Below, in pieces: positions 33,146 to 36,894 of a stretch of 64,000 bases of DNA. The stretch lies in assembly GCF_044647545.1 (NCBI RefSeq), contig NZ_CP172818.1; one strand, 5' to 3'. The number at the start of each line of letters is the position of its first letter. Positions within the stretch are counted from its first letter, which is position 1. Origin of the DNA: Escherichia coli (lineage in GTDB: Bacteria > Pseudomonadota > Gammaproteobacteria > Enterobacterales > Enterobacteriaceae). Both the position numbers and the translations under genes were made by a program. The notes beneath the pieces are model-generated. The model was not told the DNA's origin. It did no database searches and saw nothing but the letters and a program-made list of their open reading frames with translations.

Positions 33146-34970
<1,825 letters not shown>

Positions 34971-35112
34971 AGATTAGAAATCCTTTTGAAAGCGCATTGT
35001 TATGAGTTTACGCATATGGATTCATCTGGCAAATAAAAACGCGGGAAAAGCACTGGTCAGCGTCGGGGGCGGGGGTATAATGACCATTCTGTTATTGCAT
35101 AGAGTAGTTAAC

Positions 35113-35286
35113 ATGAAGCGGAGTAGAACGGAAGTGGGGCGCTGGCGCATGCAGCGTCAGGCTAGCCGACGTAAATCGCGTTGGCTTGAGGGGCAGTCGC
35201 GCCGAAATATGCGTATCCACAGCATCAGGAAGTGCATTCTAAACAAACAGCGTAACTCGTTATTGTTTGCGATCTACAATATCTAA
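35113..35286 (+). CDS. yciY: Small highly basic protein YciY (57 aa)
   Basis: Internal ATG of ORF 35002-35286 gives MKRSRTEVGRWRMQRQASRRKSRWLEGQSRRNMRIHSIRKCILNKQRNSLLFAIYNI (57 aa); lies between convergent cls and kch. Confidence 0.6.
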   Translation: MKRSRTEVGRWRMQRQASRRKSRWLEGQSRRNMRIHSIRKCILNKQRNSLLFAIYNI

Positions 35287-35340
35287 ATGTTCTGGGCACC
35301 ATTGCGGTGCCCAATAAGTTTACTCTTCCGTCTTTAAACT

Positions 35341-36594
35341 CTATTTTTGCGCCGATTCTTTACTGTCAGCTTTCGTTTCTTGTTCATCGTTATCGCTGAA
35401 AATGCCATGACCGGAGTTCAACAACATTGAAACGAGCATATCATTATTAATCTCTTCACCATTTAAAACTCGCGCCAGAATTTCGCTGCCAAACAGTTGT
35501 GGTGAGAGAATGATATCCGGATGTACCATCTTAATCTTATTCAGGTTTTTGCTATCACTGACGGCAAGAACTGTTTTGACATCACTGCTCATATCTTTTG
35601 CCGAGAGTACAACAAACGCGTTATCTGCATCGTTATCACTCAGCGCCAGAATGGCCCGGCAACGATCGATTCCCGCTTTCTTTAACACTGAACTGTCATT
35701 ACTGTCACCGGGGATAACATCAGCGTTATCGCCTAAGCGTTGCTCAAGTTGCTTGATATCATCTTCAGGCAAGTTGCTGATAACCGTAACGTTTTGTCCG
35801 CGTTGATTCAGTTGCAGGATCGTATTGATGGCGAGAATCGAATGTCCGCAAACAATAAAATGATCTTTACGATGCATTGTATGATTGTTTCCTTTTACAA
35901 GTTTGTTGAATCCCCCGCGGATAAGCGGACCAAAAATTGAGGTCATAGAGGTGGCAAAAACGGTAATGCCGGAAATAATGACCGAAATAGTGAACAATCG
36001 TGCTGATTCAGAAACAGGGACAATATCGCCATAGCCGACGGTTGACATGGTTTCTATCGAAAAATAGAACGCGGTCATCAAACTTTCTATTCGCGGATTA
36101 AAACCTTCGCTTAAATAAAGCGCACCGTAGGTGGAGTAAAACAGTAACGTCGTGAAACTAATAAATGCGAAAATTGTCCCGGCTGCGGCGCTACTGTGGG
36201 AGAAGTCTTTGCGCAGTATCAGCAAAAACACCAGCGTAAAAATGCAAAATCCAATACTAAATTTCAGCCAGGGATAAAAATGCAGGGTGTAAATTAGCGC
36301 TATCAACAACAAAATGATACTGATTGCCCATGCGAGTTTTGCCCGGAACAGTAAGCCAATGGAGTTCAGGACAAGAAAGACGCCGAGCATAAAGAGTGGG
36401 GCGTTTGCCAGCAAGGAGAGATCCAACTCTGAAAAGGCTTTGATATGGAAAATATCAAGCAAATTGACCGACATACCATAGATTGTTTTAAAAATAAGCA
36501 ATCCATTTAAAAAAACGGCCAGCGCGAGAATGTCGTGCCGTAGGGTCACCCATAAATTAGTTGCTGTTTGTTTGAATGTAGCCCAGTGACTCAC
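35341..36594 (-). CDS. kch: Voltage-gated potassium channel homolog Kch (417 aa, GTG start)
   Basis: ORF 35341-36612; product MSHWATFKQTATNLWVTLRHDILALAVFL... with the K+ selectivity filter TVGYGD and a C-terminal RCK/TrkA domain. Confidence 0.9.
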   Translation of the reverse strand: MSHWATFKQTATNLWVTLRHDILALAVFLNGLLIFKTIYGMSVNLLDIFHIKAFSELDLSLLANAPLFMLGVFLVLNSIGLLFRAKLAWAISIILLLIALIYTLHFYPWLKFSIGFCIFTLVFLLILRKDFSHSSAAAGTIFAFISFTTLLFYSTYGALYLSEGFNPRIESLMTAFYFSIETMSTVGYGDIVPVSESARLFTISVIISGITVFATSMTSIFGPLIRGGFNKLVKGNNHTMHRKDHFIVCGHSILAINTILQLNQRGQNVTVISNLPEDDIKQLEQRLGDNADVIPGDSNDSSVLKKAGIDRCRAILALSDNDADNAFVVLSAKDMSSDVKTVLAVSDSKNLNKIKMVHPDIILSPQLFGSEILARVLNGEEINNDMLVSMLLNSGHGIFSDNDEQETKADSKESAQK

Positions 36595-36894
36595 TGATAC
36601 CTCTGTAACCACAATTTTGTTTAATTATCTCAACGTGCACATTTTCTGAACATACATGCAGCACGTGAATGTGTTAAACAATAGTAGATGACTTTATCTG
36701 AAGTAATCAAAGGTTTTGAGTGAGCAACTCTGCGTCAGGAAAGGGCATTTTTCCTGAATATGCTCACATCATATAAAGAAATACAGATAAAGTTATTATC
36801 TGCTTGTGGGGGTGAATGCACTGACCGACCTATAAGGAAAGGCCAAACAAGAACACGGTTGCAAAAACCGTGCCCTTAAATATTGAATCTCTAT

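Follow-up and report, generated by a model that had tools for sequence, protein, structure and literature searches.

Does the short and very basic open reading frame between cls and kch encode a protein, and what could such a protein do? The frame lies in a stretch of 64,000 nucleotides from Escherichia coli, referred to here as the window, and a first-pass annotation had read it either as a nucleic-acid- or ribosome-binding protein or, equally well, as a non-coding artefact. We therefore looked at its identity, its conservation and published translation data, its transcription signals and gene neighbourhood, and finally at the predicted structure of its product.

Identity and translation of the open reading frame

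The frame runs on the plus strand from an ATG at 35113–35115 to a TAA at 35284–35286 and encodes 57 amino acids, as read from the window sequence and the list of its open reading frames. The earlier description of a 57-aa frame at 35113–35286 and of its peptide was exact, and its estimate of about 30% Arg and Lys agrees with the 17 of 57 residues (29.8%) counted here. We hold with high confidence that this frame is yciY and a genuine protein-coding gene, and no result of the analysis speaks against this identity. RefSeq annotates the coding sequence (57 aa plus stop) as ‘YciY family protein’ (WP_001309467.1) and the peptide is exactly that of the UniProt entry YCIY_ECOLI, ‘uncharacterized protein YciY’. 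The NCBIfam family NF033701 (yciY_fam) matched with 109.8 bits at a cut-off of 30 (E = 5.1e-32), with residues 1–55 aligned to profile positions 1–55 of 56. The local copy of Pfam gave no match for YciY, and PF26518 (YciY) is listed for all relatives in precomputed annotations. The protein has the same sequence as the E. coli reference and agrees with the family (NF033701/PF26518) in length, genomic position and orientation with no difference; it is in fact the founding member of this family, the name of which gives no function. The gene is already known, with an annotation that is years old, and its identity is therefore no new discovery.

Of the 5426 complete E. coli genomes 5422 carry the region, as judged by a 370-nt query across the cls–kch gap at an identity of at least 95%. 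Among the 15 matches listed across the ranking all are YciY family protein, 14 with an intact yciY and one with a pseudogene disrupted by IS1, and the best match shows the gene order oppF, yciU, cls, yciY, kch, yciI, tonB. In E. coli strain C3728 a copy of IS1A interrupts yciY in its 3' part and makes it a pseudogene (locus L087, 2643–3516). This insertion represents a natural knockout and yciY is therefore dispensable, at least in one clinical isolate, which counts against its importance.

Some smaller observations concern the gene itself. The stretch 35113–35286 is 100% identical to strain FDAARGOS_497, and one synonymous difference separates the window from K-12 MG1655 in yciY (codon 28 is CAG in the window and CAA in K-12, the latter taken from the start-site table discussed below). 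Rare codons (AGA, AGG, CGA twice and CGG) are used for five of the 13 Arg residues. The gene also occurs on 22 ‘plasmid’ records of 150 kb to 4.9 Mb, 20 of them predicted to be non-mobilizable; these PLSDB records probably represent pieces of chromosomes, or entire chromosomes, that were wrongly labelled as plasmids.

As 47 open reading frames of 30 aa or more were counted across the surrounding 4.5 kb, a length of 57 aa is no more than expected by chance and the significance of the frame rests on its conservation. One genome per species was scanned and a YciY relative was found to be encoded in 335 species, of which the best 80 loci were examined. All 80 contain an intact frame of 57 or 59 aa that starts with ATG, and the in-frame stretch upstream of this ATG varies between 3 and 91 codons in the same loci, so that only the ATG at 35113 is conserved. 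Over 54 gap-free aligned codons, 25, 18 and 50 sites are variable at codon positions 1, 2 and 3, respectively. The median pairwise dN/dS of yciY is 0.065 between the species loci (mean pS 0.58, mean pN 0.083), and the two shifted frames, calculated alike as controls, gave 2.1 and 2.8. Within the genus Escherichia 20 differences from the window were counted, and all but one of them (19) are synonymous. Judged by these substitution patterns the YciY protein is under strong purifying selection across Enterobacterales, and the dN/dS comparison that had been proposed as a check from the sequence thus revealed neither neutral nor frame-breaking variation in the 80 species loci.

Published data also locate the start of translation. 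In the start-site table of the tetracycline-inhibited ribosome profiling (TetRP) of Nakahigashi et al. 2016, a start is given at K-12 position 1306812 (+) with the identical peptide (PMC4909307). Initiation-site or ribosome profiling data had been named as a further check, and the start in this table falls on the exact ATG. The table labels the entry ‘New protein (2014), yciY’, alongside yccB, yncL, yneM and ynhF, and its signal columns for yciY read 192.4, 4.17 and 46.0, similar to those for yneM and yncL (PMC4909307). A chromosomal Venus fusion at the 3' end of yciY (construct IVP3) is described there as fluorescent and as used for a positive control (PMC4909307). The other four small proteins with the same label each contain a long hydrophobic stretch, whereas YciY has no transmembrane-like segment. 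Hemm et al. 2008 reportedly were the first to propose and SPA-tag yciY, in a study that is said to have added small proteins of E. coli to the annotation via comparative genomics and models of the ribosome binding site.

Two other readings of the frame have to be weighed against these results. The frame might be open by chance, with its apparent conservation stemming from promoter or terminator elements of cls or from an RNA. Chance frames of similar size are indeed common, the Shine-Dalgarno sequence is weak and regulatory elements of the neighbours are present in the region, but the codon-position pattern and the dN/dS of 0.065 are found in this frame only and not a single frame break occurs in the 80 species loci. 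With a mean pS of 0.58 the synonymous sites are near saturation, so that the frame itself is free of nucleotide-level constraint and a promoter or RNA cannot explain its conservation. Moreover, the blocks of the cls promoter lie upstream of the frame and not within it, no Rfam family was found at threshold in the region, and translation has been shown by the TetRP start site and the Venus fusion. We regard a chance frame as vanishingly improbable, and the non-coding artefact that the first-pass annotation had put on a par with a protein is refuted. Alternatively, the real product could be a form of 94 aa starting at an ATG at 35002, as annotated in some genome records. The frame is open from this position and 94-aa ‘hypothetical protein’ entries do exist (P0001, P0175, P0176), but in many genera the in-frame extension comprises merely 3–25 codons and is not conserved, it holds the conserved promoter hexamers of yciY as well as the cls promoter, and the TetRP start site is at the ATG further downstream, which makes the longer form very improbable. 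Other records contain a form of 45 aa, probably starting from Met13 (P0174; one copy is mislabelled ‘chpB toxin’). As the upstream extension is unconserved and holds promoters, the alternative starts of yciY look like annotation inconsistencies.

Transcription signals and gene neighbourhood

The genes on both sides of yciY had been described as convergent, but cls (cardiolipin synthase, 33510–34970) and kch (35341–36594) are both located on the minus strand. Thus, yciY diverges from cls, with 142 nt between its ATG and the cls start, and converges on kch. The doubt that had been derived from a ‘convergent terminator region’ is also wrong, as cls and kch are co-directional and the frame between them has its own conserved promoter.

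This promoter was found in a consensus scan and consists of the −35-like hexamer TGGTCA (35054–35059, plus strand), which is moderately conserved in an alignment of the cls–yciY intergenic region from 18 genera, and the −10 hexamer TATAAT (35076–35081, plus strand), which is a perfect consensus and invariant in the same alignment. Together with their spacing of 16 nt (35054–35081) they show 10 of 12 matches to a sigma-70-like consensus. Across 87 loci the hexamer found most often at the −35 position is TGGTCT or TGGTCA, and in 83 of them TATAAT precedes the ATG by 35–41 nt. From these elements we infer a transcription start near 35088. The spacer (35060–35075) is a G-run in E. coli, GCGTCGGGGGCGGGGG; its sequence is unconserved and other genera are also G+C-rich here. 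No obvious Shine-Dalgarno sequence had been seen in the first reading, and it is indeed weak, but an AGAG at 35101–35104 on the plus strand precedes the ATG by 8 nt, and 85 of 87 loci have a GAG between positions −15 and −7 relative to the ATG. The 5' UTR is not significantly structured (z = 0.06). The consensus scan also detected a promoter-like site for cls on the minus strand (TTGCCA-16 nt-TAAACT, 35005–35032), which stands back to back with the promoter of yciY. The blocks GAGTtTACGC and TCTGGCAAATAAAAA, which contain the hexamers of this promoter-like site, are invariant or nearly so in the 18-genus alignment, in which invariant blocks also correspond, on the opposite strand, to the Shine-Dalgarno sequence of cls.

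Downstream of yciY a GC-rich hairpin is located at 35293–35313, past the ends of both genes, 7 nt from the stop codon of yciY and 27 nt from that of kch, and it folds on both strands. It consists of an 8-bp stem (TGGGCACC/GGTGCCCA) with the 5-nt loop ATTGC, and its core GGGCACC...GGTGCCC spans 35294–35312. With an MFE of −17.5 kcal/mol and z = −4.6 none of 200 shuffled sequences folded as well, and the other strand reached z = −3.8. The hairpin noted before at 35293–35312 is thus real, but its core starts one base later than stated there. Loop and flanks diverge between 18 genera, but these retain the stem GGGCACC/GGTGCCC, in which one pair shows a compensatory change. We regard this hairpin as a probable 3'-end or terminator structure common to the convergent yciY and kch transcripts. 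In Kluyvera, Pluralibacter, Trabulsiella and Mangrovibacter the homologous hairpin is flanked by an A-run, a T-run or both, and in several genera with a convergent yciI the A-run precedes the hairpin and the T-run follows it, or one of the two is present, which is how a bidirectional terminator is built. No T-run directly follows the stem in the E. coli window, where the sequence continues with AATAAGTTTAC on the plus strand and GAACATTTAGA on the minus strand, and a terminator scan did not call the hairpin at 35293–35313. As E. coli, with kch between yciY and yciI, has no T-runs and the scan was negative, the hairpin is a putative terminator there. The 7-bp stem is almost invariant across 18 genera with saturated synonymous sites and one covarying pair, which is unusually strict for a terminator, and judging from this conservation the hairpin might also be recognised by something.

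With its own promoter and 3' hairpin yciY is a monocistronic unit. A role as leader peptide found no support in the gene order, as no co-directional gene follows, the next gene is convergent where it could be placed (kch, yciI) and the hairpin comes after the stop. In all of the best 80 loci from the 335 species a distance of 139–146 nt separates the start of yciY from that of the divergent cls, and yciU comes after cls. This divergent pairing was also found in Brenneria, Morganella and one further relative, with a chemoreceptor gene at the right flank of yciY in Brenneria and unrelated genes in Morganella. Among the 80 loci, kch is located between yciY and yciI in Escherichia only (E. coli, E. 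albertii, E. whittamii and other Escherichia). Most other genera have a convergent yciI a short distance after yciY, and kch in this place thus gives the appearance of an insertion specific to Escherichia. In the loci examined cls–yciU is the sole constant neighbour of yciY, and the downstream gene changes. This linkage may reflect either function or interlocked promoters that are hard to separate. The gap between kch and yciY has been used as a neutral integration site in another open-access paper.

Relatives of YciY were found in many genera of the Enterobacteriaceae, in Pectobacteriaceae (Brenneria, Pectobacterium), Yersiniaceae (Rouxiella), Erwiniaceae (Erwinia) and Morganellaceae (Morganella, Providencia), and all named relatives are from Enterobacterales. 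A HMMER profile search against 1.84 billion representative proteins returned 39 proteins, nearly all of them small members or fragments of the YciY family; no remote homologues and no link to another family were detectable in this search. PADLOC and PHROGs gave no match to YciY, and phage genomes gave chance matches only (E ≥ 0.3).

Two further observations concern kch. A weak match to CRISPR-DR35 lies inside this gene at 35398–35433 on the minus strand (21.8 bits at a gathering threshold of 35, E = 0.09) without a repeat array and is almost certainly due to chance. The longest kch reading frame starts with a GTG at 36612 and encodes 423 aa, compared to 417 aa from the RefSeq start at 36594.

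Predicted structure and possible partners of YciY

The identification of yciY mainly closes a question and does not open a long-standing one. What is left of value is the function of a strongly conserved and extremely basic protein of 57 aa that is restricted to Enterobacterales. An open-access literature search for b4595 gave no relevant match, and no experiment that connects YciY with RNA or ribosomes was found in the searchable literature.

YciY contains 13 Arg, 4 Lys, 2 Glu and no Asp, which results in a net charge of +15 and a pI of 12.0. Its N-terminal 40 residues are nearly invariant and follow the pattern M[KR]RSRxEV[GAS]RWRMxRQxxRR[KR]xRWLExQSRRNMRIHxIRK, with M1, S4, E7, V8, R10, W11, R12, M13, R15, Q16, R23, W24, L25, E26, Q28, S29, R30, I35 and R39 being invariant. 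No transmembrane segment was found (maximum 19-residue Kyte-Doolittle mean 0.09, GRAVY −1.14). AlphaFold2 with the family alignment predicted one continuous helix for residues 5–56 with a mean pLDDT of 91.7, although a high pLDDT says little about real structure when the model is a lone helix. The hydrophobic moment is mostly below 0.3, showing little amphipathicity, and the conserved positions point evenly to all sides of the helical wheel (resultant 0.08), so that all faces of the predicted helix are constrained. In this model such a constraint fits better to a helix enclosed by its partner, as in an RNA groove or a protein cleft, than to a helix on a membrane surface. Together with the mapped promoter, Shine-Dalgarno sequence and hairpin, the conserved N-terminal 40 residues, the conservation on all faces and the linkage to cls–yciU provide the groundwork for characterising YciY.

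Our best guess, which builds on the predicted helix, is that YciY would bind a polyanion via this Arg/Trp-rich helix. RNA or the ribosome can be named as a tentative candidate for the partner by analogy, at rather less than even probability. The helix would then insert into a polyanionic partner that encloses it, and this partner would most likely be a structured RNA (rRNA, the ribosome or another RNA), as for ARM peptides or small basic ribosomal proteins. The composition had already been taken to fit a nucleic-acid- or ribosome-binding protein in the first-pass annotation, and this reading stays an inferred one. RNA-binding helices of the ARM type are found in lambda N, HIV-1 Rev and Tat. 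They share with YciY a short Arg-rich segment with Trp, whereby the helix of YciY is a predicted one and 13 of its 57 residues are Arg, and the predicted binding mode would be alike, with a helix enclosed by a polyanion. In contrast to ARM peptides, YciY is a free-standing chromosomal protein of 57 aa without detectable homology or a phage homologue. The local sequence RWRMQRQ of YciY resembles RWRERQRQ of HIV-1 Rev, but is kept as an analogy only; BLASTP of YciY against an HIV Rev sequence entered by hand gave no alignment with E ≤ 100. The small basic ribosomal proteins of the Sra/bS22 type, bS21, bL34 and bL36 are similar to YciY in size, extreme basicity and predicted helical character, but YciY shows no sequence relation to the chains of solved ribosome structures, and a search of the PDB including the E. 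coli ribosome chains gave no significant match. The conserved linkage to cls–yciU, which are genes for lipid synthesis and a DNA mimic and not for translation, also counts against an RNA- or ribosome-based mechanism. A match to mitochondrial uS14 (E = 0.23 to 2) was rejected as a chance hit, and hhalign against an E. coli S14 sequence, likewise entered by hand, gave a probability of 0.2%.

The neighbourhood points to other partners. YciY could work with the products of yciU–cls, either as a basic partner or antagonist of YciU or as a peptide associated with anionic lipids or ClsA that affects cardiolipin synthesis, which we consider unlikely. The divergent cls/yciY pair is present in 80 Enterobacteriaceae loci as well as in Brenneria, Morganella and the one further relative, and is kept while the downstream neighbour changes between kch, yciI, a chemoreceptor gene and unrelated genes; however, back-to-back promoters alone could hold two genes together. 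YciU is a very acidic dsDNA mimic of the HI1450 family with 30 acidic and 7 basic residues, compared to the charge of +15 of YciY, and the Haemophilus homologue HI1450 binds the basic protein HU (PMC3643605). In a 2026 screen overexpression of yciU raised the MIC of doxycycline and of an aminoglycoside, and genetic interactions between yciU and genes of translation are cited in the same paper (PMC12924614). An AlphaFold2 model of a YciU-(G4S)6-YciY fusion based on a genome-paired alignment reached a pTM of 0.48 with no confident docking, and the pLDDT of the YciY part dropped from about 92 to 51–73. The model thus lends no support to a complex, but it is a weak test, as its output contains neither contacts nor PAE. 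Moreover, homologues of YciU are found beyond Enterobacterales (HI1450 in Haemophilus), whereas the named YciY relatives are confined to this order, and YciU therefore does not depend on YciY. Arg/Trp-rich peptides are generally known to bind anionic lipids, but YciY is not amphipathic and is conserved on all faces, so that a membrane helix lying on the surface fits poorly.

A narrower version, in which YciY is the dedicated basic counterpart of yciU–cls and its +15 helix is either neutralised by the −23 YciU or competes with HU or nucleic acid for YciU, has only a slim chance in our estimate. If true, such an acid/base pair of YciU and YciY would link the state of the nucleoid or of translation to cardiolipin synthesis. 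The cls/yciY pairing throughout Enterobacterales is compatible with this version, which found no support in the model of the fusion. YciY could also be a DNA-binding, nucleoid-associated basic peptide, for which its charge, its predicted helix and the nearby gene for a dsDNA mimic can be brought forward. No similarity to DNA-binding families was found in Pfam, NCBIfam or the PDB, though, and the rare Arg codons may point to a low abundance that is untypical of nucleoid proteins, and we judge this role to be improbable.

Outside of the conserved N-terminal region, the C-terminal part of YciY is variable except for a patch of [SA]-L-L-[FY]. This patch reads QRNSLLF in the window (residues 46–52, 35248–35268), has the general form Q-R-x-[SA]-L-L-[FY] and is QRVSLF in Rouxiella. 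It loosely resembles what we take to be binding motifs for the beta sliding clamp (QL[SD]LF, QAMSLF), with a register that does not fit in E. coli.
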